64,000 nt of DNA, taken from IMG/VR virus record IMGVR_UViG_3300009376_000009. One strand, written 5' to 3'. Origin of the DNA: an uncultured virus (IMG/VR IMGVR_UViG_3300009376_000009) (lineage: Duplodnaviria; Heunggongvirae; Uroviricota; Caudoviricetes). Position 1 is the stretch's first letter, and each line of letters opens with the position of its first letter. The translations under genes were made by a program, and so were the position numbers. A model generated the notes under the pieces. The model was not told the DNA's origin. It made no database searches and worked only from the letters and a program-made list of their open reading frames with translations. Shown here in pieces: positions 6,325 to 29,065 of the stretch.

Positions 6325-6682
6325 GTGAGTCTAACAAACCGAGCCTAAAAGTAACTTCCTATCCCATTCCAAAATCACAACCGAAAGGAGAATCTCACGA
6401 CGAGCAAGGCGTAGCCTCATCTGACTGTGAGAAAGTCGTCGTCCCTATGGAACCACGAGCCGCCTGCCCTGACGAGGGGCAACGGGCAGCACGTGATGGG
6501 GCGGCGCACCCCCAACAACGAAAACCCAAGTCCTCTCCCCTGCGGCGTCCGCCTTGACGAAGGCCCACAGGATTGCTTGAACGCAGGGTCGGGGCAACAA
6601 ACTTTTGTAACGCATGGGGGCGAGTGGAGTTGTCCTCGCTCGCTCCCGCCTGCGTTTCTTGGGGTTAAAAGTAACTTGGAGA

Positions 6683-6703
6683 TTTTTTTGTGACGATTTT
6701 TTT
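6683..6703 (+). terminator. Archaeal T-tract terminator
   Basis: Two T7 runs upstream of the next promoter. Confidence 0.6.
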
Positions 6704-6798
6704 CGATGCCTCTGACGACGACAGAGAGAGAGATGAGAGAGAGAAGATTTCATCTAAAAGTAAGTCCCGCGTGCGACCCGAAGTGATAGACGACGGCG

Positions 6799-6833
6799 AC
6801 GCTTGCGATACGGAACCGTCATCTTCTTAAGCA
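6799..6833 (+). promoter_or_regulatory. Class II early promoter
   Basis: ACGCTTGCGA at 6799, TAAG at 6828, ATG at 6853. Confidence 0.8.
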
Positions 6834-6852
6834 ACGACAGAGAGGCGTGGTC

Positions 6853-7386
6853 ATGCAAGAGATAGTGCGTAGAGGCAAGGACTCTGACGTCTTCACAGGA
6901 CTCAAACTTGTGAACAAGCACAACGGCCACATGGCTATCGTTACGGGCGCGAACGTTACTGACTACGGCAGCGTACAATGGGACGTGCAGAAGCACACCG
7001 AGTCTTTCTCTCTAACATGGAATGCTAGGGACATAGCGAAGCATTGGTATCTCTGCACGCACGAAGAGTATGACCAACTACTCAGACTCTCATCAGAGTT
7101 GGCTGCACCCGACGCCAAACTCGTAGAGGCGACGGGCATCATCCCTATCAAGAGGGGGGAGATGACGCAAGTTAAGAGTCAAGGCTCAGAGTCAATCATA
7201 TACAGGTGGGAATATCACTACATCAAGCAGGACGAATCCTACGTGGACGAGTTGAAGCCTGTGGTCGTTAACTTCCGCCTAAAACTAAACTCCGATGATG
7301 CAGGCGAATTGACCGGGTACAACATCATTGATGAGCCTCTTCCCAACAGAGACTACAATCCGTTGGAGAACAAAGAAGAAGAGTGA
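6853..7386 (+). CDS. Hypothetical protein
   Basis: Long ORF. Start reassigned to ATG 6853 from promoter spacing. Confidence 0.8.
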   Translation: MQEIVRRGKDSDVFTGLKLVNKHNGHMAIVTGANVTDYGSVQWDVQKHTESFSLTWNARDIAKHWYLCTHEEYDQLLRLSSELAAPDAKLVEATGIIPIKRGEMTQVKSQGSESIIYRWEYHYIKQDESYVDELKPVVVNFRLKLNSDDAGELTGYNIIDEPLPNRDYNPLENKEEE

Positions 7387-7396
7387 GGGTTCTTTT

Positions 7397-8752
7397 ATGG
7401 GAAAACTAACATACAAGGAGTTGGCCGAAGGCCCAATGCTTGATGCGCTGCCCGAAGACTATGTTACTCGCATTGAAGCGCACGAATCTATCATCTTCAT
7501 GGAGCGTGCGGCTATGCCGGCTATGATGCCCGTCACTACCGCCGAAATAATGAACGAGATACCGACCGGTTGTCTAGTATTTTCACGGACGAGGAACAAC
7601 CCACGCCTGCAACGTGAGTACGGTGGGTCAAGCCTCGCCTTGCTCCGAATGGCTCAGGACTCAAACTACCGCGTCTTTGAGGAAACACTTTCACCCGACC
7701 CTACCGATTGGAACACTTTGGAGTTTAGCAGCCCGGACACGCATCTCCGAAGCAGAAACCGGCTCATCACGCAACTAGAGTATCAGCGACTCACTTGGAA
7801 AGCGCGACGACGTTTCCGACTAACGAAATACTTCGCTGCGCCTAAAAGAAACTTGGAATTGATGTGGCGACAGGCAGCATCGCTTGGGACGACGCCATTA
7901 GAGTTTTTCTCAAACATAGTCAACAACGGGAACCTAATCTCTACAACGTCGAAGAACATCTACCGCGCTAAGTCGAGGAACTCATTCTCCACACGCGCCC
8001 TATCAGGGACGGCAAATAGCAAGCAGTATCAGTACGCACGAACCAACGCGCATATCGTCTACACCCCCGTCTTTGAGAGGCTACTCTCGGAACACTCGGA
8101 GAAGTGGAGGAACCAAGAGACACACACGGCTGCATACGACAAGGGACGCAAAGCCCACACCTTCGTAACTCAGGCGATTAAATCAGCAGAGCAACGCATA
8201 CAGAATCTTGGGATAAAACTAACTTCGCAGGCATCAACGATGGATTGCGACCTCTTCAAGTCAAAGCCAAGTCGAGCAGCAAGCCTTCTCTTGGAATGGT
8301 CATGGTCAGCAAACTTTGCAACGCTGCACAACCAAGTAGGGAATGAAGACGTCCCTATGGAAAAGGGCTGGGCGGATAGCGTGATGGAGTCGGGAGGATT
8401 CCTACACTCTCTACGGAGAGGGATGACCATTGAGAATCACAACGACCTCATTGAGCCAACGGAAGATGATTGGGAGGAAGCACAGTCCTTCTTCGATAAT
8501 CACGACGACCTTTGCATCGCGGCAGGAATTGGATTCAACACCTCGACTGCGAAAAGATACAAACTCCCGAAGACATTCTCTCAATATGTAGGCATCATCG
8601 AAGCCATAGAATCATCGGAGTCAGCAGTCAAAAGAAACGCGGACTCAATACGCTCATTCCTTCAAATGACTCTGAGGGAAATGCGTGACCGCGTAAATCA
8701 GATTGGAAGCGGTTACGTTGAGCGCGACGGTGTCCGGGTGCGGGACACGTAA
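7397..8752 (+). CDS. Hypothetical protein (~451 aa)
   Basis: Long ORF with a GAGG Shine-Dalgarno before ATG 7397. No recognised motif. Confidence 0.8.
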   Translation: MGKLTYKELAEGPMLDALPEDYVTRIEAHESIIFMERAAMPAMMPVTTAEIMNEIPTGCLVFSRTRNNPRLQREYGGSSLALLRMAQDSNYRVFEETLSPDPTDWNTLEFSSPDTHLRSRNRLITQLEYQRLTWKARRRFRLTKYFAAPKRNLELMWRQAASLGTTPLEFFSNIVNNGNLISTTSKNIYRAKSRNSFSTRALSGTANSKQYQYARTNAHIVYTPVFERLLSEHSEKWRNQETHTAAYDKGRKAHTFVTQAIKSAEQRIQNLGIKLTSQASTMDCDLFKSKPSRAASLLLEWSWSANFATLHNQVGNEDVPMEKGWADSVMESGGFLHSLRRGMTIENHNDLIEPTEDDWEEAQSFFDNHDDLCIAAGIGFNTSTAKRYKLPKTFSQYVGIIEAIESSESAVKRNADSIRSFLQMTLREMRDRVNQIGSGYVERDGVRVRDT

Positions 8753-8817
8753 ACGGCGACTAAAAGTAACTTTGGGGAAATCGGCAACTTCATAAGCATA
8801 CACGAGGACGGAATGAT

Positions 8818-8898
8818 ATGGCGAAGTGTCCGAAGTGCAAGGTGGAGTGGCTTGACCACACCTTCAACGAGCGACTCTCATGCAAGGGGTTGAACTGA
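8818..8898 (+). CDS. 26-aa CxxC microprotein (not in ORF track)
   Basis: MAKCPKCKVEWLDHTFNERLSCKGLN. ATG is 25 nt after TAAG (8793) and the stop abuts the next ATG. Confidence 0.65.
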   Translation: MAKCPKCKVEWLDHTFNERLSCKGLN

Positions 8899-9246
8899 AT
8901 GGAGCCTAAAAGAATCTTCACAGGAATTGCTGACGCTCACGGCTTAGAATCATTTCACGAAGCCGGGGAGGTTGGGGTTTCTGAGGGAGTCGCAGGATTC
9001 CGTGTGAGAGCGAATAGACACAGGCACGCACTAATCTATTGGGTGAAATTAGATGACGTCCAAGTGAAGGTCATAAGTGCGATATTGTCCGACGAGAAGA
9101 ACGATGAGAGATTCATGGATGCGTGTCGCCTGCTACATGACGCCGACTTCGTTGAGTCTGTGGCTGTTGAACACGAAATGCGTCGCAGTTGGGATATGCT
9201 ACCCGACCACAAACTTGACCCGTTTTGGAGTGGAGATAATGAGTAA
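8899..9246 (+). CDS. Hypothetical protein
   Basis: Tightly packed in the operon. Confidence 0.8.
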   Translation: MEPKRIFTGIADAHGLESFHEAGEVGVSEGVAGFRVRANRHRHALIYWVKLDDVQVKVISAILSDEKNDERFMDACRLLHDADFVESVAVEHEMRRSWDMLPDHKLDPFWSGDNE

Positions 9247-9634
9247 ACTTCCGGCTAAAAGTAATTGGGTTCTCTACCCGAACGGAAGGGTCCGAGGACA
9301 GGCCTTCCTCATCAAGAAGATTGACGGTACGCACCGTTACTATTTCGCTTCGGAGAACCCTGTTACCGTAGGGAAGAAAGGCTCTATGAGAAATAACGTT
9401 CTGTGGATTCAGAAGAAGATGAAGGAGAAGGGCGTGAGCATGAGTTTCCGTCGTGACCGCAACGGAGGCTTTTGGCTATCCCACACTCTCACAGGCACAT
9501 ACGGACGTGGCCCTGTTCTCTCCATCGAAGACTTGATGGAAAACGGATGGGAAATACACGAAACGATTGAACCCTCAGAATCAAACGGCTACCGACGCAT
9601 CTACCTAAGCGAAGACGGAAGAACAAGCGTATGA
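9239..9634 (+). CDS. Hypothetical protein
   Basis: GGAG Shine-Dalgarno, start overlaps the upstream stop. Confidence 0.75.
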   Translation: MSKLPAKSNWVLYPNGRVRGQAFLIKKIDGTHRYYFASENPVTVGKKGSMRNNVLWIQKKMKEKGVSMSFRRDRNGGFWLSHTLTGTYGRGPVLSIEDLMENGWEIHETIEPSESNGYRRIYLSEDGRTSV

Positions 9635-9644
9635 GTGTGAAGTG

Positions 9645-9743
9645 ATGAATATGGTGTCTGATACCTACGCTTTCTTTTCCTTCGTGTTGGGGATTATGCT
9701 CGGAATACAACTCTGCCTCATTCTTTTCACAGTATTTTCCTGA
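9645..9743 (+). CDS. 32-aa single-TM microprotein
   Basis: MNMVSDTYAFFSFVLGIMLGIQLCLILFTVFS fills the intergenic gap. Confidence 0.5.
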   Translation: MNMVSDTYAFFSFVLGIMLGIQLCLILFTVFS

Positions 9744-9762
9744 GTGATGGAGGCTAAAAGTA

Positions 9763-10065
9763 ATGTTGTTCAAAGTCACAGGCCTCATCAGGAATGGACG
9801 TTGGGATAACGTCGCAGAAGAGTGGGAGTTAGCACGAATTACTCCAAGATTTTTTCCTCGCTATCAGGAGGCTAAAAGTTTTTTTGACGGAGAGATAGTA
9901 TCAGGAACGATGTGGCGCAAGAACGAGGACGACGCAAGGAATACTTATAGCGTAATTGAAACCGTTGGAAATGTTTGGCCGGAAGGCGCACGAGCAAAGA
10001 ACAAGGCACTCATAGATGAAGTCATAGAGATGATACAGGACAGGCGGTGGAGCCATGAAGTTTAG
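9763..10065 (+). CDS. Hypothetical protein
   Basis: GGAGG Shine-Dalgarno. Confidence 0.8.
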   Translation: MLFKVTGLIRNGRWDNVAEEWELARITPRFFPRYQEAKSFFDGEIVSGTMWRKNEDDARNTYSVIETVGNVWPEGARAKNKALIDEVIEMIQDRRWSHEV

Positions 10066-10378
10066 TCGAGAGATGAAGGACTACTTTAGGGAGAGCATGG
10101 GGAACTCGCTCACACCGGGTCATGCTGCCGACTATCTCACAAACCTGTTCTTAGATGAGGCATGGGAAGGCAGGGACTACGATAGAGGCGATAATCCCTC
10201 ATGGGGGTGTCTGTTAAACTCAAAGGCATACAGGGATATGGTAGAGGCTTTCCGATGGTGCGATGAGCGATGGGGCTGCAACTCTACTCAAGAGTTCAAA
10301 GAGGCATTGTTCTCTAAGATGGACTATCAACGCGACCCCATCTATACCGAGATGAGGATATACCTGTGTGGTGAATAG
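10055..10378 (+). CDS. Hypothetical protein
   Basis: Start overlaps the upstream gene, Shine-Dalgarno present. Confidence 0.8.
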   Translation: MKFSREMKDYFRESMGNSLTPGHAADYLTNLFLDEAWEGRDYDRGDNPSWGCLLNSKAYRDMVEAFRWCDERWGCNSTQEFKEALFSKMDYQRDPIYTEMRIYLCGE

Positions 10379-10392
10379 GAAGGTAAAAGTAA

Positions 10393-10572
10393 ATGAGCGC
10401 AAACTGCATAAGGTGTAGAAACGCTATCATGGGGCAAGGACATAGAGTAAGCATTCTCCTGCATCGTAACAACGAGAGCGAATACGCTGCTGCCTCAATA
10501 CGAGGCAAAGTCTGCGGCAACTGCTTCCTTTGGCTTGACGCTGTGAGCATCGAGCAAGGGTCGAAGTTTTGA
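10393..10572 (+). CDS. 59-aa Zn-finger protein (not in ORF track)
   Basis: MSANCIRC...KVCGNCFLWLD has two CxxC motifs and a GGAAGG Shine-Dalgarno. Confidence 0.7.
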   Translation: MSANCIRCRNAIMGQGHRVSILLHRNNESEYAAASIRGKVCGNCFLWLDAVSIEQGSKF

Positions 10573-10616
10573 AGGCTAAAACTAATGCCTGCAATATTTC
10601 CAACGTTACAAATCCA

Positions 10617-10652
10617 ACGCTTGCGAGTAGCATACGACAAGTTGATAAGCAT
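10617..10652 (+). promoter_or_regulatory. Class II early promoter
   Basis: ACGCTTGCGA at 10617, TAAG at 10646. Confidence 0.75.
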
Positions 10653-10688
10653 GAATCACGAGGGCTATTCATAGCGGAGAGAGAGAGT

Positions 10689-10970
10689 ATGATTCGACAG
10701 AAGGGACAGCGTCTATGGGAGCCTGCTGTGGTGGCTCACTTGAAGAAACAGAGTGAGCCAATAGACGGCAGAACAATCCTTGCTGAAACCGTGATGCAAT
10801 ACCCGAAGGGAACGAAGAAGACGTTGAGTCAAGCACGCTCTTGCCCCAACCTATTCCAACTTGCGCGGTGGGCGAATAACGAGCCATCCATCAAAGTCAC
10901 TCTGATACGCATAGAAGGCTTAACAGGCTCAAGCAAAGCAGTCAATCATTACGAATGGGTGGGTGAATAA
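10689..10970 (+). CDS. Small basic winged-helix-like protein
   Basis: Shares a sequence pattern with five other small ORFs in the window. Confidence 0.65.
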   Translation: MIRQKGQRLWEPAVVAHLKKQSEPIDGRTILAETVMQYPKGTKKTLSQARSCPNLFQLARWANNEPSIKVTLIRIEGLTGSSKAVNHYEWVGE

Positions 10971-10972
10971 GG

Positions 10973-11377
10973 ATGGGACGAAGAACGCGAAGCAAGACTC
11001 CAAACAGTAATGTACTGAGAGCCGTAGCACAATATCTTCACAACAACGGCCCTTCAACAGTAGAGAATATTGTCGAGAATGCTGTCTTCAAATCAGGTAA
11101 GCCTCTACGCATGAGTAGAATGGCTATGACGACAAGACAACTCTCATCCACACTAGCAGGACACAAGGACTTCTTCGTCTTTAATCGAGCGCAGAAAAGG
11201 GGAGCAGGGGAGTGGGCTATTGAGCCTAAAAGTAAACTCTTGAGTGACTTCGTTGATAGGAAGGACAGCCCTGCTACCGCAGCGTTGAAGAAGAAACTTG
11301 GGATGGCGGCCTACAAGAAGCAACTAGATGCGCGACGGACTAGACCGTCGTATATTCGCAAGTCGTCAAGAGGCTAG
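10973..11377 (+). CDS. Basic winged-helix-like DNA-binding protein
   Basis: YLHNNGPSTVENI...TTRQLSSTL..HKDF...GEW pattern. Confidence 0.7.
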   Translation: MGRRTRSKTPNSNVLRAVAQYLHNNGPSTVENIVENAVFKSGKPLRMSRMAMTTRQLSSTLAGHKDFFVFNRAQKRGAGEWAIEPKSKLLSDFVDRKDSPATAALKKKLGMAAYKKQLDARRTRPSYIRKSSRG

Positions 11378-11397
11378 TCCGATAAGGAGGCAATAAG

Positions 11398-11661
11398 ATG
11401 GGAGATTTAGTCCATTATTTCGTGCTAATATGCCGAAAGTGTAACCTTCCCATGAACAACAATAGAAGTGAAAAAGGAGTCATAGTCATAGGTTGCTCAG
11501 AATGCGGTATCGAAGTGAACAAGGAAGAGCGTGTGATGGATAAGGATGACTTCATTGATACTCACTTGACTCAATACGGTCAGCCCATCAAAGAAGATGA
11601 TGATGAGGACGATTACTCCCCCGAAGAAGAAGACTTCTTTGCGTCCGGCGGTGACCATTAG
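11398..11661 (+). CDS. Zn-ribbon protein with acidic tail
   Basis: CRKC...CSECG, D/E-rich C-terminus, AAGGAGG Shine-Dalgarno. Confidence 0.8.
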   Translation: MGDLVHYFVLICRKCNLPMNNNRSEKGVIVIGCSECGIEVNKEERVMDKDDFIDTHLTQYGQPIKEDDDEDDYSPEEEDFFASGGDH

Positions 11662-11908
11662 ACGGGGGAATTAGATTGGATAATGACTGTCCTGTCGAAG
11701 CGGCGCGAGTCGTTTACGAGAACGAAATCTTAGAGAGAGTAGCCTCAGAAATCGCGGCTAAAAGTAACTCCCCGAAGTCTTTATGTAGTGATAGGCTGTC
11801 CGAAATACAGAGCGAGGGGGCGACAGATGATTAGCCCCATGAAGCAGTTTATCAGGTTCCTGATGGGCCTGTTTGATGACGTGAATATGTTCGATAGGAA
11901 ATGATTAC

Positions 11909-12208
11909 ATGAGAAAGATACAGGCTCGTAGAGCGATAGTAGAAGTCCTGTTGCAGCACCCTGATGGGTTAACAGGACAGGAAATTATCGTGAAGTTAGA
12001 CCCGAAGATTAGCCGTAACAGTATTACCGACACGCGCCATCTTAGTCAGTTGATGAGAGGCGCGAAGGGAGTAGACAGAATCAAGAATGGAGGCGTATCT
12101 TACATGGAAAACCCCGACTCTCTTTCTCTTCACCGATACAAAGTCGTTCTCTACAAAGTTTCAGATGAGAATGCTCTAATGGCGTGGATAGGAGGCAAAC
12201 TCCGATGA
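11909..12208 (+). CDS. Winged-helix-like protein
   Basis: LLQHPDGLTGQEI...TRHLSQLMR pattern. Confidence 0.7.
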   Translation: MRKIQARRAIVEVLLQHPDGLTGQEIIVKLDPKISRNSITDTRHLSQLMRGAKGVDRIKNGGVSYMENPDSLSLHRYKVVLYKVSDENALMAWIGGKLR

Positions 12209-12447
12209 GTAAAATCGAAGACCAAGTTATTGCGAGGATTCAACGGCGAGTAGAGCGTGGTTTCAAGAAATACAACACAGACATGGAGCGCGAAGACTTG
12301 AATCTGATAGATTGGTTACAACACGCACAAGACGAAATGCTTGATGGTGCGATTTATCTTGAGCGATTGAAGGAAGAGTTTGAAATCCGCTTAGATGAAG
12401 CCGTGAAAAAAATCACCGAGGAAATACACGAAGCAAACAGGGGCTAA
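12205..12447 (+). CDS. Small helical protein, MazG-like dNTP pyrophosphohydrolase-type
   Basis: R.ERG.KKY....R.D...WL.HA.DEMLD.AIYL pattern. Confidence 0.6.
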   Translation: MSKIEDQVIARIQRRVERGFKKYNTDMEREDLNLIDWLQHAQDEMLDGAIYLERLKEEFEIRLDEAVKKITEEIHEANRG

Positions 12448-12452
12448 AAGTA

Positions 12453-12890
12453 ATGGACCGATTTAATTCAAACGAACCGTTGGAAGATGAACCTAAAAGT
12501 ATTCCACCGGCATATCGAACCAAGAGTAGTGGAGTCACGCCCCAAGAAGTCTGCAAGACACTTGACGACATTGAGATTGCAGCGTCGCAAACAATCACTA
12601 CCCATGACGAAGCAGATAGTCAATTCAGAAGCATCACAGAACAGGCTGCCGAATTAAATGAGCGCATCAATGAAGCCGGGGTTGTAGACGATGATTACGA
12701 ATACGAAATCTCACACATGAGAGAATTGATTGAAGATGCTGCTCGCTATATGTCGGTTGGTAACTACCGTCAAAATGTCCCAAGAAACGTCATCAAACAC
12801 TTCAAAGACACCATGAAGCGTATGAACGCCATAATCGCGCTCAACAAACAGGCCCGTCGAGAAGGTTCAGAAGATGCAGGAACGAATTGA
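12453..12890 (+). CDS. Hypothetical helical protein
   Basis: ORF packed in the operon. Confidence 0.75.
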   Translation: MDRFNSNEPLEDEPKSIPPAYRTKSSGVTPQEVCKTLDDIEIAASQTITTHDEADSQFRSITEQAAELNERINEAGVVDDDYEYEISHMRELIEDAARYMSVGNYRQNVPRNVIKHFKDTMKRMNAIIALNKQARREGSEDAGTN

Positions 12891-13677
12891 TTTCATTTCG
12901 GGCGACGTGGAAGTAATCGAAGCGGTTGCATTTACTCGTCAAGCAGCCAATATACTCACGAAGCAACCACACGTGGTATTGCGGGTAAAAGAAACTGTCC
13001 TCACTATTGAGGATAAAAGAATTATGTGGAAGTTTCTCGCTCTGCTCGATACAACACAGAAGTTTCCCTTCCTGAATTATCTCAGCGTCGTAGACGTTAT
13101 CCCTCTCAACAGAGTCATCGAAGATTTTCTCCACGATTACCCTAACACTATGTTTCACGTGTGGGTAGAGAAGGGAGTGATTGTCGGCTTTGACGGACAG
13201 CAGCACAATCCTCGTGCTACCTCCGACACGATGCAAGAGATTGCAGAATACATCAAGACCAAAGATGATACTTACGACTACAACATCTGCCTCCGAGAGA
13301 TAAATCGGGGTTGGCGAGCCGGAACGACACGATTCAAGACACAACGAGTCCTAACGGCAGAATATATTTCAGGGAACAAAATTGTTGAGATAGTGTCTAT
13401 TGGTCAAAGAGCGCAGGTAGTCCATATCTCAGCGCGTTATCTATCCGGCTGCGATTTCGTTCAGCCTATCCCAACTCTTGTCTTCAAAGGTGGTTTGTTT
13501 ACAATGCCGGTAAAAGAATTGTATGGGCAGATTGACTTAGTTTTGGACGCACTAAAACTGATGGAGGAAAACCCAATGCCGGAGATAGACACGCACAGCA
13601 AGGCTCACCGAATGACTAGAGTTGGGCGCAACCAATTGGAGTTTGAGCGAGGCGACGAGTGGTTCTCTGCGCTTTGA
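12874..13677 (+). CDS. Hypothetical protein (267 aa)
   Basis: Long ORF overlapping the upstream gene. Confidence 0.8.
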   Translation: MQERIDFISGDVEVIEAVAFTRQAANILTKQPHVVLRVKETVLTIEDKRIMWKFLALLDTTQKFPFLNYLSVVDVIPLNRVIEDFLHDYPNTMFHVWVEKGVIVGFDGQQHNPRATSDTMQEIAEYIKTKDDTYDYNICLREINRGWRAGTTRFKTQRVLTAEYISGNKIVEIVSIGQRAQVVHISARYLSGCDFVQPIPTLVFKGGLFTMPVKELYGQIDLVLDALKLMEENPMPEIDTHSKAHRMTRVGRNQLEFERGDEWFSAL

Positions 13678-13933
13678 GCAATTCTTTCCATCATTTGACT
13701 TCGGACTAAAAGAATTACAGGGGCGCAGTAGCATGGTTTTCGCAATTCCTTCATTTCTCCATAGGTATGTAGAGAGAGATAGAGAGAGGCTAATACAAAC
13801 ATCTTTGAATGAATTAAGAAATTGCCTCATAGCCGCGCAGTCCCACGAATCAATTATTCGACGCAAGCACGATTTAACAAAATGAATATGTTCATAAGCA
13901 TGACTATGGAAGAAAGGTATACGAGGCGATAGT

Positions 13934-18747: not shown

Positions 18748-18769
18748 GCATCAAAAGGGTGGTAGATTC

Positions 18770-20363: not shown

Positions 20364-20420
20364 CCACTACCTTCATAAGCATGATTAGACTCCGTTAGAT
20401 TACCCAAGAAGGAATGCAGC

Positions 20421-21671
20421 ATGGATGAGAACGTCTTGAATAATGTCGCTAAGACGCTGAATGTGGACGCAGGAATTGTCCGCGCTCGCGCAGAAGAGAT
20501 ACTCACTCAACAGGGCGACGCTTGGATAGCAGCAGGCAAGTCCGAGAGTGATTGCGGCATACTTGCTCTACGTGTGGCTGCGCGTATGATTAACACCGAC
20601 AATGCACGCCTCAAGAGAGCAGGCGTCACAACCTTTGAAGGAATGTTCGTTGATATGCCCCGCCCTAAGATGTGGGGCGAGTGGGGCTACAAGAAGATGA
20701 AGACTCAGTTGCTTGCTGCATCACCCGATGCTCGTCAGGCTCTCATAGATTCAGGAGCCGTCGTCCTTTACGACGACAACCACGACGGCACGTTCATTCG
20801 CTATGCGCGTGAGGACTTCGGTGGTAACGAAGCCGAGTTTAGCGAGTTGCCGAAGCATACCATGCGCTTAGATGAGAACACTCACTTCTACCCTGTATGG
20901 GATAAGTCCAATGCGACCTTCCCGTCCGGTGACGCCAACTTCAAGTTTGGTCGCCCACGACCACAGGATGACCGCGAGCGCGTTTCCTTGTTCTACGGCA
21001 GGCCTCAAGGTTCAACTGACGATGTTGCTTTGATTGAAGTCAGAGCGCAAGGAAAGGCTGCTGATATTCAACACTCTACCTTCACAACCGGCACTATACC
21101 ACTACGCGCAGGAGCGAAGGGCAAGAACGGTTTGGGTCGAGCATACGCAAAGCCCGAAGTTTCAATTCTGACGGAAGATGATTCATTGTCTTCGCTATTC
21201 CCCGCCCCGCCCATACAAAGCGATAACGATGGTGGGTTCTCAGGACTAATCCCTACGCTAAGTGAAACTTTTGATTGGCTCCCAAACCTAATGGCTTTGG
21301 AAGGCTACTTCAACGAAAATCACGGCAAGGAAGGATGGTTCGATAGAAAGGTCGCGCTTGTTACTGAGGTAATTCACATTGACCCACGCGAAAACGGTGG
21401 TTTCATCCTAGTCTGCTCAGATTTGGATATTACTTCCACCGCCGCGACTTTGGACGTATACGTGTCCGCACAGGAAGAGATTTCTTTCGGCGTAGGCACG
21501 AAACTCATGGTAATCGGTCAAACATGGCGCAGCCAAGAAGGAGAGCAGCGTTTGACTGTGAATGGTTGGTTCCCCTTTGATTCTACGGCAGGAGTCGAAG
21601 TTGTTGGAACGAATATCTACGGTGAGGCTATAACTACTCAAGGCGACGAAGACTCAGGATGGGATGAATGA
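20421..21671 (+). CDS. Probable ssDNA-binding protein (RPA/OB-fold)
   Basis: OB-like C-terminal region, acidic tail ending WDE, position between RFC and the RecA-like ATPase. Confidence 0.6.
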   Translation: MDENVLNNVAKTLNVDAGIVRARAEEILTQQGDAWIAAGKSESDCGILALRVAARMINTDNARLKRAGVTTFEGMFVDMPRPKMWGEWGYKKMKTQLLAASPDARQALIDSGAVVLYDDNHDGTFIRYAREDFGGNEAEFSELPKHTMRLDENTHFYPVWDKSNATFPSGDANFKFGRPRPQDDRERVSLFYGRPQGSTDDVALIEVRAQGKAADIQHSTFTTGTIPLRAGAKGKNGLGRAYAKPEVSILTEDDSLSSLFPAPPIQSDNDGGFSGLIPTLSETFDWLPNLMALEGYFNENHGKEGWFDRKVALVTEVIHIDPRENGGFILVCSDLDITSTAATLDVYVSAQEEISFGVGTKLMVIGQTWRSQEGEQRLTVNGWFPFDSTAGVEVVGTNIYGEAITTQGDEDSGWDE

Positions 21672-22702
21672 TGGCGCAAAATTGGGGCGATTCTAAGGGG
21701 GTCAAAGGTACTACGGTACAGGCGGCCCCTAAAGGGAAGTCGGGTAAAGTGGTCCCGAAGGCAGTCGTCTATGACCGAGAATACTATGCGAATCTATTCA
21801 CTAATTCAATGGCGCAAGCGATTGAAACAAGGATGGCTCTTGTTGGTCACGAGAATACGTGCAAGACAGGCCTTGCTGCTTCTCTCTTGGAGAAGGAGAT
21901 AATGCGCGGCGACGTTGTCTATGTTTTCGATGTGGATAATTCGGCTCGCTCTACTTTGGACTACATCTACCCGGATAAACCGAACATAAAAGTAATCCCA
22001 CTCCTTGATGAGATGGACGATTCCATATTCCACGAGGATAACTCGATTGACTATCAGGCTCTACTCAACAAGACGAAGTTTTACATCAATATTATTGCTG
22101 AGAGTGTCGAGTCAGGGGATAACGTAGGCGGTATCATTTTCGATGGCGGCTCTACCTTCCTCAAGTGGTGTGAGTTTGCTATGCGCCAATCTCTACTCGA
22201 TAAGGGAGTCATTGAGAACGAAGATGACTCCTTCAATCAGAAGGAATGGCGCGAGCGCAATCGCTTGAACCGTGATGTAATCACTCGTATTCATGCTCTA
22301 CCCGTCAGTAAAGTATTCTACACCTACCACTTGAAGGCCGTTCAGCAATACATGGACGACGGAAGTGGAAAGAAGGTGCTTATGGCCGTTGGTGAAAGGC
22401 CCGAATGGGAAAAGGGAACCATGCGGAAGTTTACACAGCAGATATTCCTGAGTCGTTACATGAAAAAGGCTGATATGGCCGCAGGCGTGAAGGGCGACAG
22501 GAAGTTGGGCGATAACCAATGGGTTGTGCGTGCAACTGTCGAGGAAATGAAGGGTGCAGGCATGGAGTTTGTCGGTTCTACTCACGACGTTCTTTCTGTG
22601 AAGAACGGCGAAGTAACATGGTTTGGTCTACCTTTCTTGCAGTCTGAACCTGAACCTGAGCCTGAGCCTGAACCTGAAATCGAAACTGATGAAAAGGCTT
22701 AG
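21668..22702 (+). CDS. RecA/RadA-superfamily ATPase
   Basis: GHENTCKT Walker A, VYVFDVDN, IIFDGGS Walker B, (EP)n tail. Confidence 0.8.
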   Translation: MMAQNWGDSKGVKGTTVQAAPKGKSGKVVPKAVVYDREYYANLFTNSMAQAIETRMALVGHENTCKTGLAASLLEKEIMRGDVVYVFDVDNSARSTLDYIYPDKPNIKVIPLLDEMDDSIFHEDNSIDYQALLNKTKFYINIIAESVESGDNVGGIIFDGGSTFLKWCEFAMRQSLLDKGVIENEDDSFNQKEWRERNRLNRDVITRIHALPVSKVFYTYHLKAVQQYMDDGSGKKVLMAVGERPEWEKGTMRKFTQQIFLSRYMKKADMAAGVKGDRKLGDNQWVVRATVEEMKGAGMEFVGSTHDVLSVKNGEVTWFGLPFLQSEPEPEPEPEPEIETDEKA

Positions 22703-22712
22703 GTGAATCTCA

Positions 22713-23639
22713 ATGGTTGTCTACATCGGTAAAACCCAATTATCTACTCTGTTGAAAATGACGCAGCGACCTCAGACTATTGCGGGTAAAAGTAACTCAC
22801 AAGTCAATGCTTGTATGTTGACTGTGGCTTGGCCTCGTATCTACACTTGCTCGTTAGTCAAGGATGGTGTATCGAGTGTGTCTATCTTTTCACAACCACT
22901 CTCAGGACACGCCTCTCCGAAAGAGGGTGAAACAACGATTGAGTCAAGCAACGGACAAATCCCTATCGTGAATATCGAAGACACTTTGGGCGCATTGAAT
23001 CACCACAGCGAGAAACTCACGCTCATTCACAAGGAAGGCAACAAACTCTTGGTTAAGTCCAAAAGTAAGCAGACCACTCTCACGTCTAACGCTGATGCTT
23101 TGGCGTTTCCCCATAGCCCCGCCTCTCTCCAAGAATGGTATGCAAAATCCGTGTCTATCGCGGGTAAGGTTCTGAGCGAAGGAGTTTACGAATTGAATGA
23201 TGGCGAAAAAGTCACTCCATTCCATTCTTATTTCAATGTAGATGTGAATACTCTGCATGAAGCGTTGCGTTGCGTGAACATGAATAATCAGAAGTTGAAT
23301 GAGTATACTTTCGTTGGTTCAAATCATACCGCAAAAGATGGACTAAAAGTAATCACCGGTAATCAACTCAAGGGGCAGACGGAGTATACGTTGGACTTCC
23401 CTTTGAGTCAAGACTGCAAAGTCAGAAGCCTAAGTCTAAAGGGGAGCAACTATCAGGGGTTCAAGGCTACTTTCGGTGGTGGATTAGACCACATTATGCG
23501 AATCACACGGAATAGCAAGGCTGACCTTCACTTCGTAGATTTGAGGGACAAAGGGCAGGGGATTAAACTCATCATTGAATTAGGTGAGGGTGATTTCCTG
23601 CTTCAATCGTCAATAGGAGATTGTGAAGTCTATGTCTGA
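22713..23639 (+). CDS. Probable divergent PCNA-like sliding clamp
   Basis: Size, beta-rich two-domain pattern and context between RFC and PolB. Confidence 0.55.
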   Translation: MVVYIGKTQLSTLLKMTQRPQTIAGKSNSQVNACMLTVAWPRIYTCSLVKDGVSSVSIFSQPLSGHASPKEGETTIESSNGQIPIVNIEDTLGALNHHSEKLTLIHKEGNKLLVKSKSKQTTLTSNADALAFPHSPASLQEWYAKSVSIAGKVLSEGVYELNDGEKVTPFHSYFNVDVNTLHEALRCVNMNNQKLNEYTFVGSNHTAKDGLKVITGNQLKGQTEYTLDFPLSQDCKVRSLSLKGSNYQGFKATFGGGLDHIMRITRNSKADLHFVDLRDKGQGIKLIIELGEGDFLLQSSIGDCEVYV

Positions 23640-24090
23640 TTGGTTCGATATAGCAGCAAGACGAAGCAAGAAGACGGGTAAGCGTGTCGGGCCGAAAGTT
23701 TACATCAAGAAAGGAGATGAAAAACCCTTGTTCCCCGATGCAGATGGTAAACTTCCTCACGTGATTTACGTTGCGGACGCTACTCTCATTTCAGAGGGTA
23801 AAAGTATTGACGTGTATTCCATGCAAGTAGAACTCCAAACAGCAGGGACGCAAACTGTGACTTGGAAAGGTGCGAATGGGGAAAACTTCGTTGCCTCTAT
23901 CAAAATTAGGCAGGAGTTAGACCCTCTATACCGTGACCCTCTATGGTTGATGGAACAATACTTGGAGAAGGAAAGGAGCATGGCTGATATAGCCGACCAA
24001 TTTGGGATAACACCAACGGCTATCCACCAATGGCTACTTAAGCATGATATTCCTACCCGTAGCAAGGGAAGGAAGAAGCATGATAATTGA
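23632..24090 (+). CDS. HTH DNA-binding protein
   Basis: WL.EQY.EKERSMADIADQFGITPTAIHQWL.KHDIP.R. Confidence 0.85.
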   Translation: MSDWFDIAARRSKKTGKRVGPKVYIKKGDEKPLFPDADGKLPHVIYVADATLISEGKSIDVYSMQVELQTAGTQTVTWKGANGENFVASIKIRQELDPLYRDPLWLMEQYLEKERSMADIADQFGITPTAIHQWLLKHDIPTRSKGRKKHDN

Positions 24091-26314
24091 GAGCATGGGC
24101 CGTCGAAAGGTCAATATTCGTTATCGGAATGAGGACGGAGAGAGACAACATAAAATCATTGAAGATGTGTGGCCTTATTGCTTTGTTGAAACTGAACACG
24201 CCCCGCTATTCGATGCTGCTTCAAAGGAAGATGGTTACTTAGGCGTATACGGAGAAAAACTAACGAAACTCGTGGTTGCTACGCCTGCACAGATACGTGA
24301 CGTGAAGGCGAAAGCAGACCTTTTCAGCGTACCTACTTGGGAGGCAAACGTTCCTTATGTGAATAGGGCCATTTGTGACCACCTTAAAAGTAACTCTCCT
24401 ATCCCAAACTACAACCACAGAATATGGTATCTCGATTGTGAGTGGAATCCTACGACGAATAAGATGAGGGTAATTGTAGTTAAGGACTCGTTCACGAATA
24501 ATGAATATGTATGGTTCGTAAATCCTGCCTTAGAGTTAACTCAGGAATATTCCGAGTTTGGTGATTACCAATACGATGTGCCTGCGAGGGGCTTCCCTAA
24601 CGAAAGGCTGATGCTTGTTGATTTCCTACGTCACATGGAGCGACAAGACCCCGATGTGATAACGGGATGGTATGTTACGGGGGCTGACGTCAAGCAGATT
24701 ATTGAACGCTGTCGCTTGAATGGGGTTGAACCAAGAAGTCTATCACCCATGAATAGACTACGCTATGAGTTTGGTGATTGGGCGCAGCCTATTGTTGGAC
24801 GTATGTGCATTGACCTGATGATTGCTACCGCAAAACTATGGGAGTTGAAGAACGGAAAACTCCCCGGTTACAAACTTGATGACGTGGCGTTTGAAATCCT
24901 CGGTGAAAGGAAGATTGAGTTACCTGACGGACACGACACCTACCTATCCGACCTTCCTTTGTATATTCACTACTGTCGCCAAGATGTTAGGCTACTCCCT
25001 AAACTCGACCTAAAAGTAAATGCAATCAATTACTACCTTGCCTTGCAACACCTTGTTCAATGCGATATTCGCACTACTCCGTTCATCACGAAAATGTTCA
25101 CTTGTCTTGCTCTTCAAGATTCTGAATGGGAACGTCGTATACCTTCTCGACCCCAATTCGATAAGGTGGATTACGAGGGAGCAGACATAATGGAAGTGAC
25201 TAAGGGACTCTACGAAAATGTCGGCATTCTCGATGTGATGGCTATGTATCACAGCAACGCGAAGCAATACAACATTTCATGGGAGATGCTTACTTCCGAA
25301 GACGGAGTTGACTGTGGTAATGGGACTTGCTTCCTGCTTCCGAATGGGGAAAGGGGAATGCTCGTTAGGCAAATGGATAACATGACCGTTCTTAGAGATG
25401 CGTTCAAGGTGGCGCGAAGGAATGCAGAAACCGAGGAAGAGCGACAACGATGGGACACCATGCAGTATGCCTGCAAGTCGTTAGTGGCTTCGATGTATGG
25501 TGTAGCGGGTGATTCCAAGTATGGCTTGTATCACCCTGAGATAGCAGCAGCAATTACTCACACATCAAGACAAACTCTCAACAAACTCAAAGAAGAGGCC
25601 AAGAAGCAGGGGCTTGAGGTTTTCTACGGTCACACAGACAGCGTCTTCGTTATCATGTCTTCTCCCGAAGAAGGAGAAAAGGCTCTACGAAAAATCAATC
25701 ACGAGATGCGACCTATTGAGGTTCAATTTGAGAAGTGGTGTGAGCGAATGTTGTTGATTGCGAAAAATCGTTATGCCGCAAATGTCGTGTGGAGTGACGG
25801 GGCGAGTCACAAAGATACCCTCTACATCAAAGGGATAGAGATGAAGCAGTCGCGTATGCCGGTCATAATGAAAGATTGCATGAAGGACGTGGTTGGTGGT
25901 ATTCTCTCCGGTGAGTCTGAAAAGGAAATTACCGAGAGCGTTACAGAACTCATCCTAAAAGTAATCGAAGGCGAGATAGAGCCTGCGAACCTTTGCATGA
26001 AAGGTAAATTGGAAAAGAACCTGAGTGACTACAAGGTATTGTCCGGCCCAAGCGCGGGAGCAGCGTGGGCTAATGAGTTTCTTGGGAAGGGGTATCGGAA
26101 GGGTTCGTTTTTCCTCGTTACCCTGAATAATGAGGGAAAATATATTGCATTCGATGACCCGAAAGAAATTGAGGGTAAGTATACTATCGGATTCAAGGAA
26201 TTGGCGGAACGTTTCATCGTGAAGAAAGTCATGCCGTATTTCAATCTCATGGGGTGGGATTCGCAGCCTCTCTTCAATACTCTACGCGGTCTTGGAAGCC
26301 TCACGTGGGTATAG
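24080..26314 (+). CDS. polB: Family B DNA polymerase
   Basis: Exonuclease motifs YLDCE, YKLDDVA and YCRQDV. Polymerase motifs DVMAMYHS, KSLVASMYG, YGHTDS, KNRY and KGIE. Confidence 0.95.
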   Translation: MIIESMGRRKVNIRYRNEDGERQHKIIEDVWPYCFVETEHAPLFDAASKEDGYLGVYGEKLTKLVVATPAQIRDVKAKADLFSVPTWEANVPYVNRAICDHLKSNSPIPNYNHRIWYLDCEWNPTTNKMRVIVVKDSFTNNEYVWFVNPALELTQEYSEFGDYQYDVPARGFPNERLMLVDFLRHMERQDPDVITGWYVTGADVKQIIERCRLNGVEPRSLSPMNRLRYEFGDWAQPIVGRMCIDLMIATAKLWELKNGKLPGYKLDDVAFEILGERKIELPDGHDTYLSDLPLYIHYCRQDVRLLPKLDLKVNAINYYLALQHLVQCDIRTTPFITKMFTCLALQDSEWERRIPSRPQFDKVDYEGADIMEVTKGLYENVGILDVMAMYHSNAKQYNISWEMLTSEDGVDCGNGTCFLLPNGERGMLVRQMDNMTVLRDAFKVARRNAETEEERQRWDTMQYACKSLVASMYGVAGDSKYGLYHPEIAAAITHTSRQTLNKLKEEAKKQGLEVFYGHTDSVFVIMSSPEEGEKALRKINHEMRPIEVQFEKWCERMLLIAKNRYAANVVWSDGASHKDTLYIKGIEMKQSRMPVIMKDCMKDVVGGILSGESEKEITESVTELILKVIEGEIEPANLCMKGKLEKNLSDYKVLSGPSAGAAWANEFLGKGYRKGSFFLVTLNNEGKYIAFDDPKEIEGKYTIGFKELAERFIVKKVMPYFNLMGWDSQPLFNTLRGLGSLTWV

Positions 26315-26349
26315 ACAGCATTATAAGCATCATTTGGAGTGGTTTATGT

Positions 26350-26703
26350 ATGAGTCGAGGACGCAAGTTTACCGGAAAGCCCACAGTCAAGCAGTTGCAG
26401 ACTGAATTACAAGAGGCACGAGCCGAGTTTAATGCGTTCGCAAATGCGGCTGTTACGGACATAATGAAGTTGAATCACATCGTCTTCGGTATGCTCGATG
26501 AACAGGGGAAGATAACGAGAATTACGTGCGTTAACTGCAAGGAAGAAGCCATTCGTCCTGAAATAGAGGGGATTGAGAACACGGAAGACTGCCCTAATTG
26601 TGGTAGAAACCTACACAAGACTGAACAGATTAACTTACAGGATATGCAGAACGCAATCCTTGAAGTTGAACCCTCAGAAGATGGCGCGGATTCTGAGGAA
26701 TAG
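26350..26703 (+). CDS. Coiled-coil plus Zn-ribbon protein
   Basis: CVNC...CPNCG. TTATAAGCAT promoter at 26321. Confidence 0.8.
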   Translation: MSRGRKFTGKPTVKQLQTELQEARAEFNAFANAAVTDIMKLNHIVFGMLDEQGKITRITCVNCKEEAIRPEIEGIENTEDCPNCGRNLHKTEQINLQDMQNAILEVEPSEDGADSEE

Positions 26704-26705
26704 TT

Positions 26706-26990
26706 ATGGCGAAAAGAGCAAGGCGCAAATACCAATGGTTACCCTGTGTAATTCGATTTCTTGAAACTACATGGCCCCGTTACGTATCGTATGACGAAAT
26801 CATCACTAACGCAACATTGGGTGGAGCAGATAGAAACAACTCAACGTTGAGGCAATCCTCTCGTGTTTGTCCGACTAAAACTTCCTTCACATCTTGCATG
26901 AGGGGCGACCCTCGTTTTCAGAAGGTAAAAGTAACTACGCATAATATTTCAGGGAAGTATAGAGAAACGGTATGGAGGTTGAAAAAGTGA
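26706..26990 (+). CDS. Small basic winged-helix-like protein
   Basis: PTKTSFTSCMRGDPRF...VWRL pattern. Confidence 0.7.
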   Translation: MAKRARRKYQWLPCVIRFLETTWPRYVSYDEIITNATLGGADRNNSTLRQSSRVCPTKTSFTSCMRGDPRFQKVKVTTHNISGKYRETVWRLKK

Positions 26991-27859
26991 CGTTAGCGAC
27001 AGCAGCACAATCAGAAGCATCTTCCTACGTTCCCGATGCCGAGGATTTCCTTAGAGTCAGTAAATCATCTTTGATGACGTATCTCATGTGTCCTCGTCAA
27101 TTCTATTGGAGGTATGTAGCAGGACTCCCTTCCCCTCCCCCTACTGAGCCTATGATTAGGGGAGGTCGGGTTCACTCCGTCTTGGAAGACGGACTTCTCA
27201 AAGGGCCGGACTCTATACCGGCTTCGGCCATCGAACACCAAGTTAGTGACGACCCTGCGATAGACTCCATGCAAATCTTGCTTCATCAGATAGCGCATGA
27301 CTTGGGTTCTTTTGAGGTATTAGAGGCCGAAGTGAAGCACGAAATCTACGAAAACTACGAGGGCAACGATGTGATATGGGTTGGTATGATTGATGGTCTT
27401 CTGAAAGTTGAGGGCTTAGGCGTCGTCATTGTTGAGTTGAAGACAGGGAAGATGAACGTTGGTAAACTCGGACGCACACGCAAGGAGTTAATCTACTACC
27501 GTCGTCTATTGGAAATAGGCTTCTCTCAGTCAGAATACTACGAAGAGCCGACCCATTTCCTCTACCTTTCCCCCGACTATCTACCCCCCGAAGACGGAAG
27601 TGAAGATAAGTTGCTTCTTGAGGGTAACAAGCGGGGTAAACGATTGTGGCTTGGTCCCGAACAAGGAATTGCGATATTGGAGCCAATCGGTCAGCGTAGT
27701 ATCAATGTTTTCTCACAATCTTTATCCGACACTATGCAACAGTTGAAACTCCAACAATGGCCTATGAAGTGGAGCGATTACTTCTGTCCGTTGTGGTGCG
27801 AGTTTTGCATGAATTGCGAGGCTGAATTAACAGGCGAAACTGCTAACTTCTTGGAGTGA
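26972..27859 (+). CDS. Cas4-like PD-(D/E)XK exonuclease
   Basis: S.S....Y..CPRQ, G..VH..LE, GMID, VELKTG and a C-terminal Cys cluster. Confidence 0.9.
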   Translation: MEVEKVTLATAAQSEASSYVPDAEDFLRVSKSSLMTYLMCPRQFYWRYVAGLPSPPPTEPMIRGGRVHSVLEDGLLKGPDSIPASAIEHQVSDDPAIDSMQILLHQIAHDLGSFEVLEAEVKHEIYENYEGNDVIWVGMIDGLLKVEGLGVVIVELKTGKMNVGKLGRTRKELIYYRRLLEIGFSQSEYYEEPTHFLYLSPDYLPPEDGSEDKLLLEGNKRGKRLWLGPEQGIAILEPIGQRSINVFSQSLSDTMQQLKLQQWPMKWSDYFCPLWCEFCMNCEAELTGETANFLE

Positions 27860-27863
27860 GAAT

Positions 27864-28037
27864 ATGTCCGAAATGAACAGGGTAAAAGTAACCTGCGCTT
27901 CCTGTGGAAAGGATGATGATTGGGAGGGCTTTGAGGATATGGTTCGTGTGACCGGCCAAGAAGGGAGTAAGCCTGAAATGATTACTGTTGGTGGTTGTGC
28001 GTGTGGTCATCAGCAACAAATCCAAATGCCGGAGTAG
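27864..28037 (+). CDS. 57-aa Zn-ribbon protein (not in ORF track)
   Basis: MSEMNRVKVTCASCG...GCACGH with a GGAGTGA Shine-Dalgarno. Confidence 0.7.
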   Translation: MSEMNRVKVTCASCGKDDDWEGFEDMVRVTGQEGSKPEMITVGGCACGHQQQIQMPE

Positions 28038-28042
28038 TTTTC

Positions 28043-29047
28043 ATGTTAATTCAATTTCCACGAGAGATAGGTTTACGCCGTAACATTTGCGAGAGCAGGG
28101 ATTCTTTCGATTCGTATGTTACCAATCTCAACGGCAAGGCTTCTTGCTACACGAGCCTCTACGCCTTCGGCAAGAGGCATCCAATTCGACGTCACAAGAT
28201 GGATATTGAGTCAGTAATTATTGACCGTGCGTGGTGGGATTTTGATACCCCGGAGGGGGGTAGCCTGTCTGACGTCAAAGAGGACGTAGGATTGCTCCTA
28301 AATAGGCTTAACGGCGACGTTCGACTCGTGTTTACGGGTCGTGGATTTCACGTTCACCAACTATTCACAAAACCTGTCTTTGGAAGGGCAATTTCAAAGC
28401 ACATTGAGAGGTATCAACGAGAGGTTGCTTATGACCTAAAAACATTGGATGGTGTAGGGCATCCTCAGAAATTGACTAGGATTCCTGATACGTGGAACCC
28501 CACACGAGAAAAATGGTCGGTCAATGTTTGTGCTAAAAGTTTTGCAGCGAACCCTTTGACCTACAAGATTCCCCCCATGCCTGACCCTCGCCTTGCCTAT
28601 CTTGACCCATTCAGGGGAGAAGTCAGAACATCTGATTTTGATATTGTTCAATGGATTAGCGATAATCCGATAAAAGACCTATCTCCTATCATCACGGAGT
28701 TTAACGGAGAAATCGGAAGTATCGAACAAATCCCAATTCCGCCTTGTCTTGATAGGGCGATACGTCACGAGAACCCAAAACATTTCGTTAGGGTGGCTCT
28801 TGCGCAACACTTAGCCGAGAATCTTCGTTGGTTCGCACACCCCTCTACGCTCACGCCTGAGCAAAGGCGAGATATTGTAGAAAAGATGGTTGCGTTCATG
28901 GCGACGTTAGAATGGAGGGACTTCAATCCTGCCGTCACGCGCTTTCATGCGGAGAGTCTTGTTGATTACGAGAAATCCCCTTCATCTTCATGGTATTTCA
29001 ACAATGGGCTATGTGACGGCCACGATTGTTGGGCGCACCAACACTAA
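28043..29047 (+). CDS. Archaeo-eukaryotic primase with fused PriL-like C-terminal domain
   Basis: WWDFD, FTGRGFHV, TRIPDTWN, and C-terminal PPCL...H..R. Confidence 0.9.
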   Translation: MLIQFPREIGLRRNICESRDSFDSYVTNLNGKASCYTSLYAFGKRHPIRRHKMDIESVIIDRAWWDFDTPEGGSLSDVKEDVGLLLNRLNGDVRLVFTGRGFHVHQLFTKPVFGRAISKHIERYQREVAYDLKTLDGVGHPQKLTRIPDTWNPTREKWSVNVCAKSFAANPLTYKIPPMPDPRLAYLDPFRGEVRTSDFDIVQWISDNPIKDLSPIITEFNGEIGSIEQIPIPPCLDRAIRHENPKHFVRVALAQHLAENLRWFAHPSTLTPEQRRDIVEKMVAFMATLEWRDFNPAVTRFHAESLVDYEKSPSSSWYFNNGLCDGHDCWAHQH

Positions 29048-29065
29048 TTCGGAGGTAAAAGTAAT

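Follow-up and report, generated by a model that had tools for sequence, protein, structure and literature searches.

A dispersed 19-bp pseudo-palindrome, oriented in the early arm, in a magrovirus group C-type genome and its candidate reader

INTRODUCTION

The DNA examined here is a 64,000-nucleotide stretch of an uncultured tailed virus (Caudoviricetes) from marine metagenomes, IMG/VR record IMGVR_UViG_3300009376_000009, and is referred to as a whole as the window. It carries many copies of a nine-letter word, TAAAAGTAA, most of them on one strand of the early and replication genes. A previous sequence-only reading had proposed that the word is a strand-polar signal, Chi/KOPS-like or serving priming, DNA entry or nucleoid organisation, and possibly one system with a repeat array at the left end. 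We describe here the element to which the word belongs, a degenerate 19-bp pseudo-palindrome, together with its distribution among relatives and the proteins that might read it.

The complete genome measures about 70.5-71 kb (an identical clamp loader is found on contigs of 70.5-71 kb), of which the window covers 64 kb and leaves about 6.5 kb outside. A rightward early and replication arm (approximately 4.2-30.0 kb) includes genes for DUF932, an AAA ATPase, the clamp loader, PolB, a PD-(D/E)XK nuclease and ERCC4. The remainder forms a leftward structural arm, with a DP1-like nuclease beside the portal, while the left end consists of small leftward cassettes in a repeat array. The labels SSB, sliding clamp, primase and MCM-like, given to otherwise unassigned open reading frames (ORFs), are our reading of gene order and sequence.

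Magroviruses of group C (Philosof 2017) are described as tailed viruses of 65-100 kb with a clamp loader, nucleases, a PolB nearest to those of haloviruses and a DP1-like exonuclease within the structural module, and are reported to be without ligase (PMC5434244). The window has PolB, clamp loader, nucleases and the DP1-like exonuclease; haloviral enzymes are the nearest to its PolB among isolates, and no ligase was found among the 62 ORFs scanned in the window, which excludes some 6.5 kb of the genome. Its gene content thus fits a magrovirus group C-type virus of archaea, whose host would be Poseidoniales (Marine Group II archaea), as for that group (PMC5434244).

RESULTS

An over-represented nine-letter word on the coding strand

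The 9-mer occurs 28 times in the window, 24 times on the plus and four times on the minus strand, where 100 dinucleotide shuffles gave a mean of 0.45 and a maximum of 3; the earlier estimate of less than one copy by chance is therefore borne out. All 22 plus-strand copies previously reported between 6346 and 29064, and the four minus-strand copies at 41164, 43876, 45977 and 55132, are where they had been placed. Two plus-strand copies can be added, at 52732 (antisense, in a giant late gene) and 62939 (sense, in the DP1-like nuclease gene). Once gene calls were corrected by hand, 27 of the 28 lie on the coding strand. As had been noted, they fall both between genes and within them in different frames: 17 are sense copies in coding sequence (CDS), using the two frames X-K-S and L/I/V-K-V, ten lie at gene edges or in intergenic DNA, several of the exact words overlapping stop or start codons, and one is antisense.

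The enrichment persists in a codon-preserving shuffle (17 sense CDS copies against 1.5, with a maximum of 5 in 300 synonymous-codon shuffles), and the numbers on the two strands are clearly unequal. The 8-mer core TAAAAGTA is still more polar, with 27 plus and no minus copies within 4200-30030, and polar variants of it, TAAAAGAA and TAAAACTA, occur in the early arm. The late sense copies on the minus strand also exceed codon expectation (4 against 0.36, a number reached in 0 of 100 shuffles), whereas the single antisense copy is within it. A copy every 0.6-1.2 kb through the replisome cluster had also been noted: gaps through the replisome genes are indeed 0.45-1.2 kb, but over the whole early arm spacing is no more regular than random (coefficient of variation 1.14 vs 0.95, P=0.87). 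Literature searches on the word, on magrovirus motifs and on DUF932, which did not extend to subscription papers or supplements, gave no description of the element.

The word is one half of a 19-bp dyad

As judged from the sequence, the 9-mer is not a stand-alone polar word: it makes up the stronger of the two halves of a 19-bp, degenerate pseudo-palindrome. In matrix scans, matches come as plus/minus pairs 4 nt apart, and the box upstream of the core is its reverse complement. Made symmetric, the consensus reads (T)TACTTTTA-SSS-TAAAAGTA(A); the spacer is fixed at 3 bp and the central pair is G/C in 96% of cases. A spacer of 3 gives the best score whether the pooled sites or the window by itself are considered. 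Near-duplicate sites were dropped ahead of the pooled, leave-one-out and same-frame counts, and the 136 de-duplicated sites pooled from 15 sequences show strong preferences from -11 to +10. In leave-one-genome-out tests the upstream half is register-specific (p 5e-23; window alone p 7e-8; 27 independent sites p 5e-6). It also holds against same-frame shifts (p 1e-22) and is common to one-mismatch variants. The second half is found, more weakly, at antisense and late copies (antisense copies p 0.002-0.02). Under unseeded palindromic expectation maximisation (EM), two relatives, G002 and G014, yielded the consensus, and a third, G009, yielded a variant. The window is among the training sequences of both matrices; G016, which is outside matrix training, has 47 plus and 21 minus sites against about 1 expected. 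The exact perfect palindrome, searched for in viral contigs, was found at three unrelated loci, without enrichment.

Two-fold symmetric, double-stranded sites with graded matches are the signature of a dimeric DNA-binding protein. The matches here are graded and use both strands and both arms and, together with the dyad, they therefore bear this signature; the 19-bp element is very probably a protein-binding site. Of the functions first suggested, that of a selected cis-acting DNA signal stands, and its nucleoid or protein-binding version fits best. A Chi/KOPS-like, primase or replication-fork signal, or a word acting at the RNA level, would agree with the strict early-arm polarity of the 8-mer and with the flip of the word's polarity near the convergence point in relatives. 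It is largely refuted by the dyad itself: a Chi/KOPS word is not palindromic and is polar over a whole replicon, whereas here symmetry comes with a fixed spacer, the second half is present at antisense copies too, both strands are enriched, the late arm is symmetric, matrix hits outside the early arm number five on each strand and spacing is irregular. We regard such a signal as very improbable, and a short, strictly polar Chi/KOPS or primase word is not supported.

Sites in the window

Of about 72 sites found in the window, the early arm holds 44, the array 2 and the DNA beyond the early arm 26. The early set (5208..29754, plus strand, by matrix hits) consists of lopsided 19-bp sites in which a weak TACTTTTA-like half and a G/C-rich 3-bp spacer precede a strong TAAAAGTA-like half downstream. 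They start at 5208, 6335, 6655, 6744, 7269, 7390, 7832, 8203, 8750, 8896, 9245, 9744, 9942, 10373, 10566, 11216, 11748, 12005, 12434, 12483, 12975, 13003, 13500, 17376, 17736, 18216, 18318, 18427, 18865, 19158, 19884, 20252, 21976, 22776, 23333, 23788, 24374, 25000, 25945, 26915, 27872, 28426, 29045 and 29736. Each of the 22 nine-mers first reported forms the right half of one of these 44 sites. Early sites of the window are extreme in combining one perfect half with a faint partner, which is why a polar 9-mer was seen at first. Two are more balanced: the top two-sided site of the window, TTCTTTTA.TGG.GAAAACTA (7390..7408; symmetric matrix score 19.4), is hit on both strands 4 nt apart, and TACTTTTC.GGC.TATAACTA (19884..19902; score 17.1), within the clamp-loader gene, has its strong half on the left.

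The 26 sites of the late arm and packaging region (30158..63493) show no orientation bias and start at 30158, 30561, 31319, 32993, 33788, 34628, 36113, 37461, 38434, 38955, 41165, 43167, 43877, 45978, 47275, 48875, 52721, 53789, 53912, 55133, 58950, 59902, 60228, 60940, 62928 and 63475; 22 matches to the symmetric matrix were found here against 1.6 expected. They include the two additional exact plus-strand copies, TGTATTTG.TCG.TAAAAGTA (52721..52739, antisense in a gene for a 2345-aa late protein) and TACTGATG.ACG.TAAAAGTA (62928..62946, in the DP1-like nuclease gene), both with good flanks. Within the array lie AACTTTTG.AGG.CAAAAGAA (3183..3201) and a weaker second site at 3971.

The position of the sites depends hardly at all on start codons: of 301 site centres, 43 are intergenic, against 8.8%, and 86% are in CDS. 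A promoter element was considered and rejected, the sites having a fixed distance neither to start codons nor to TATA-like TYATAAGCA words.

Orientation is biased in the early arm

In the early arm of the window TAAAAGTA occupies 17 of 31 codon-permitted places and TACTTTTA none of 11. A bias beyond codon opportunity is also seen in the early arms of G005 (39:7), G004 (32:5) and G010 (14:1), with p 0.001-0.003 over these four genomes, for which a pure codon or strand-composition artefact (A-rich coding strands) fails. In late CDS of the window, synonymous shuffles average 1.4 sites (maximum 6 of 40) where 17 are observed, oriented 9:8, and late arms are unbiased in every genome tested. On these codon-controlled counts the bias is shown to be real and confined to the early arm.

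Orientation with transcription, which holds for exact words and the early arm and not for the full set of late-arm sites, recalls the stoperators of cluster A mycobacteriophages. Those of L5 are described as more than 20 asymmetric 13-mers oriented with transcription, lying in short intergenic spaces, bound by a monomeric repressor and linked to lysogeny (PMC9283540). A comparable viral winged-helix protein would bind the present sites, block elongation in the sense direction and shut down early transcription. There are parallels. As in L5 and TipsytheTRex (PMC9283540), dozens of copies follow transcription (here all but one of the exact words), some over stop or start codons. In the window, the early arm is densest and several winged-helix genes are present. 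Unlike a 13-bp asymmetric stoperator, however, the site is a 19-bp dyad, mostly intragenic and oriented in the early arm only; the winged-helix genes also occur in motif-free relatives, and no integrase was found among the 62 window ORFs scanned. A stoperator-like repressor thus appears improbable.

Another reading considered was that a dimeric nuclease nicks or cuts the virion DNA at these sites in a programmed way, as in the tf/T5/phiKMV type. The 14 nick sites of phage tf lie mostly in the early half, on one strand, and are almost invariant, with a consensus starting with TACT (PMC3517423). The convergent genome layout, early-half bias and TACT start of the tf/LUZ24 sites (PMC3517423) are shared by our element, and the two plus-strand copies outside the early arm have good flanks. 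Here, by contrast, both strands are used and matches are graded. The late minus-strand copies exceed codon expectation, which argues against a one-strand tf-type nick word, and group C viruses are reported to be without ligase (PMC5434244). We consider a nick site highly unlikely.

The palindrome among relatives and its association with DUF932

The comparison set comprised 19 virus records, whole or nearly whole, and several hundred loci. Many relatives show coding-strand enrichment of the word. An initial division into motif-positive and motif-negative relatives by the 8-mer proved wrong, since G016, G013, G014, G015, G009 and G011 carry variants. Two types can be distinguished: type A, TACTTTTA-N3-TAAAAGTA, in the window, G005, G002 and G016, and type B, TRCTTTAN-N3-NTAAAGYA, in G009, G013, G014, G015 and the partial G011, the last of which cross-validates the type B of G009 (15 vs 3.5). 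Orthologous sites turn over and the protein sequence is bent to fit: palindrome sites occur even inside PolB and the clamp, PolB residue 102 reads LKSNS in the window only, and LKVI or VKVI is found in the clamp-like protein of none but the densest lineages.

The gene for the DUF932/TIGR03299 protein (5293..6324, plus strand, 343 aa; Pfam PF06067, TIGR03299) is among the first early genes, and the first exact copy of the word lies 22 nt past its stop codon. The palindrome family was found by seeded EM in 8/8 near-complete genomes with a full DUF932, the window included (z 5.5-13.7), and in 0/5 near-complete genomes without it (z 0.5-2.7); EM on shuffles used fewer rounds, which slightly favours real genomes. 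Among 149 queries with genes of the window, G001 and G005, this 8/8 and 0/5 pattern is matched by DUF932 and by its orthologue in G005 alone. In the DUF932 tree all type-A genomes fall in one clade (UFBoot 75), the G016 lineage included, whereas the core AAA gene of that lineage groups with DUF932-less, motif-free viruses (FastTree 0.998). L095, without a full AAA gene, was left out of the tree of that gene and L038 out of alignment A2.

The motif is patchily distributed on the virus core tree. This agrees with a host source, in which a dimeric regulator or chromatin protein of Poseidoniales reads the sites, the viral copies acting as decoy or recruiter and DUF932 sharing the host range or acting on the factor. 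Cellular regulators typically use sites of dyad geometry, no virus-encoded protein that has a DNA-binding fold and co-segregates with the motif was found among the relatives compared, and the arms begin and end like TrmB half-sites, TACT and AGTA (PMC4158304). However, the palindrome variants follow virus lineages and the DUF932 tree, and a decoy has no need of an orientation bias. In addition, 18 of 19 loci from another chaperonin-bearing marine virus group, which we take to be other magroviruses, are at background (L373, a group C fragment, was excluded from these 19), and a viral reader is therefore favoured over a universal host reader. We judge a host reader rather unlikely and the reader probably virus-encoded.

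G008 (a whole record), without DUF932 and palindrome, has a different dispersed word, GGATCTGG, in 53 copies genome-wide (37 sense vs 15 antisense), which survives codon shuffles.

Other candidate readers

Several further proteins of the early arm were considered. The gene at 18337..18747 (plus strand) encodes a winged-helix and zinc-ribbon protein resembling TFE-alpha/TFIIE-alpha (TFIIE, E 3e-4, top Foldseek hit; against 2od5, Z 11.0, root-mean-square deviation 3.6, 88 aligned). It is present with the same recognition helix in motif-free relatives, and this family-wide protein may be a viral TFE-like transcription factor. A small winged-helix-like, DUF3860-like protein (11909..12208, plus strand) is also found in motif-free relatives. 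At least five paralogous small winged-helix-like proteins are encoded in the early arm (10569-14353 and 26706-26990) and are variably present in relatives. As a partner, the gene at 12453-12890 was rejected: although it follows the clade with the 8-mer, neither G005 nor G016 has it.

The left array and other repeated words

The array (1..4170, plus strand, 52 plus and 6 minus copies of GTTACAAAA) is a separate feature. The proposal that it forms one system with the word did not hold up, since the two are decoupled among relatives: G012 has the array word, identical to that of the window (66+23 copies), and neither palindrome nor DUF932, and the palindrome occurs without such an array in G004 and G010. 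In the window only two weak palindrome sites lie in the 6.3 kb of the array region. What survives of the proposed link is a small number of sense copies of the array word itself, scattered over the early arm of G012: at 47419-59626 of that genome, after a change of orientation of the array word near 47 kb, TTTTGTAAC continues in sparse sense copies.

Array cassettes of the window (1-4170) consist of small genes pointing leftward. Each cassette carries a promoter-like TATATGAACC, as seen on the minus strand, a palindromic pair of the array word (at 1292, 1881, 2299, 2656, 3136 and 3555), further direct copies and AG runs. Cassette arrays also occur in G005, G003, G009, G002, G012, G013, G014, G015, G007 and G016, with lineage-specific words (GTTACAAAA, TACTACAAATT, TATCTACAAAT, GCTACAAATTT, CCTACGAAGT, CGGCCAAA, AATAGTCGC); no such word occurs in G004, G010 or G008. 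The array resembles the intergenic repeats of HF2 (PMC8707807) or an iteron field, and a search of viral contigs for the array palindrome gave no hits. At 3660-3830 of the window, and at the same position in relatives, a conserved gene-free core with repeated RGTGYA words (AGTGCAAAAAGTAAA in relatives) lies at the divergence point and is a candidate for an origin, a terminus or a pac region. The word ACGCTTGCG(A), which precedes TATA-like TYATAAGCA promoters at 4637, 5239, 6799 and 10617 (plus) and 3934 (minus) in the window and is present in most same-clade relatives, is probably a viral activator box; other lineages have their own, CGTTAACTGCG in G007, CCTTACGCTGCGCC in G012 and AACTCACG in L147.

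Other features of the genome

The DP1-like protein is a metallophosphoesterase (61813-63297) whose gene adjoins that of the portal in the window, with the terminase next in G005. A family-wide early-arm protein (16482-17111), encoded far from the terminase gene, has a CxxC-H/H helix-turn-helix-like N-terminus and a helical C-terminus, and we take it to be TerS-like. The 2345-aa late protein (47285-54322) includes about 16 internal repeats (phrog_30390; THUMP matches are weak). In some relatives (G003 56406-57923, G009, G011) a Cpn60 chaperonin gene, absent from the window, lies between SSB-like and RadA-like genes. L095 is a 61-kb contig of this virus family inside a genome bin titled Opitutales bacterium and is probably mis-binned.

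DISCUSSION

We tentatively favour, at little short of an even balance, the view that the sites are operators scattered over the genome and bound by a dimeric protein, probably a viral one, which would coat the early-entering arm, the lopsided sites letting sense transcription through. The 19-bp site would be read on double-stranded DNA by a two-fold symmetric protein made first by the virus, for which the likeliest candidate is the DUF932 protein or else a factor inherited together with it. This protein would load every 400-900 bp, most densely on the early and replication arm, and coat or organise the genome soon after entry, protecting it and tuning transcription rather than switching single promoters on or off. 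At the weakest step, sites in the heavily transcribed early arm may have evolved with the weak half upstream, allowing RNA polymerase travelling in the sense direction to dislodge the protein, opposite traffic being hindered. Such a coat with polar permissiveness is possible, with the balance somewhat against it. That DUF932 itself binds the 19-bp site, as its co-occurrence with the motif might suggest, is more doubtful. The most specific proposal, that DUF932/TIGR03299 of group C magroviruses is a dimeric sequence-specific DNA binder made in the first minutes of infection, forming a coat with one-way gates for archaeal RNA polymerase and co-evolving with the palindrome at 50-130 copies, is speculative and, taken as a whole, unlikely.

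A number of observations weigh against these proposals. In G019 a distant DUF932 is present without the motif (z 1.3), and L147 and L148, with close DUF932 proteins, have z ~0 in 21 kb, with weak signals (5/1.4 and 6/0.6) under the G014 matrix; in G013 the motif accompanies a DUF932 of separate origin. The contrast of 8 with 5 genomes represents few independent events because the genomes are related. The DUF932 structure model (predicted local distance difference test 88.8) resembles no fold known to bind DNA (Foldseek gave no hit at E<=0.001; the best match, VIA, has Z 6.7), nor did its sequence match solved structures. Three bacterial phages (40-45 kb each) whose DUF932 is 23-25% identical have no comparable palindrome, with weak signals in two. 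The weak half is often barely recognisable in the window, where only seven early sites pass the symmetric matrix. Asymmetry in G002 and G003 is no greater than codon expectation and may there be an artefact of codon or strand composition. Finally, a 94.6% identical strain shows no clear lowering of divergence at sites: strong halves differ in 12/256 tallies and weak halves in 1/112, against a background of 5.4%.

Known systems provide partial parallels. KorB of RK2, Noc/SlmA and RacA are dimers that read palindromic sites scattered irrespective of genes and denser in one part of the replicon. The present sites differ in their far higher density, about one per kb, in their early-arm one-sidedness and in a candidate partner without an assigned fold. 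No family match to a ParB- or TetR-type gene was found among the window ORFs scanned, many of which are without assignment (a further 6.5 kb being outside the window). A precedent for polarity is RTP-Ter of Bacillus subtilis, in which a symmetric dimer gains it from a lopsided site with a strong and a weak half; there, a few Ter sites flank the terminus, whereas some 70 sites are present here, densest near gene divergence. The RTP chain 1f4k was met only as a generic winged-helix hit (E 0.026). The DtxR/IdeR box TTAGGTTAGSCTAACCTAA (PMC8464063) and the Haloferax TroR box (PMC10783522) have the same 19-bp, 8+3+8 geometry with a central TTA-SSS-TAA and tolerate half sites. Unlike DtxR/IdeR sites, with TTAGG-N4-CCTAA per dimer, ours are without the four CCTAA repeats, have outer arms TACTT/AAGTA and are not promoter-linked. 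TrmB sites, TACT-N3-AGTA or TACT-N7-8-GAGTA, lie at promoters and share the outer TACT...AGTA (PMC4158304), but here the spacing is N11, the inner TTTA/TAAA is conserved, the centre is G/C and sites are position-independent.

An apparently strand-polar word can thus be one half of a dyad. If the operator reading is correct, the palindrome would be the first concrete cis-element for gene control or early genome protection in viruses of the abundant, uncultured Marine Group II archaea, and one whose operator function is strong enough to rewrite replisome residues. DUF932, a widespread phage and plasmid protein, would gain a testable candidate function, and the two natural specificity variants, type A and type B, make possible a cheap swap test without culture of the host.

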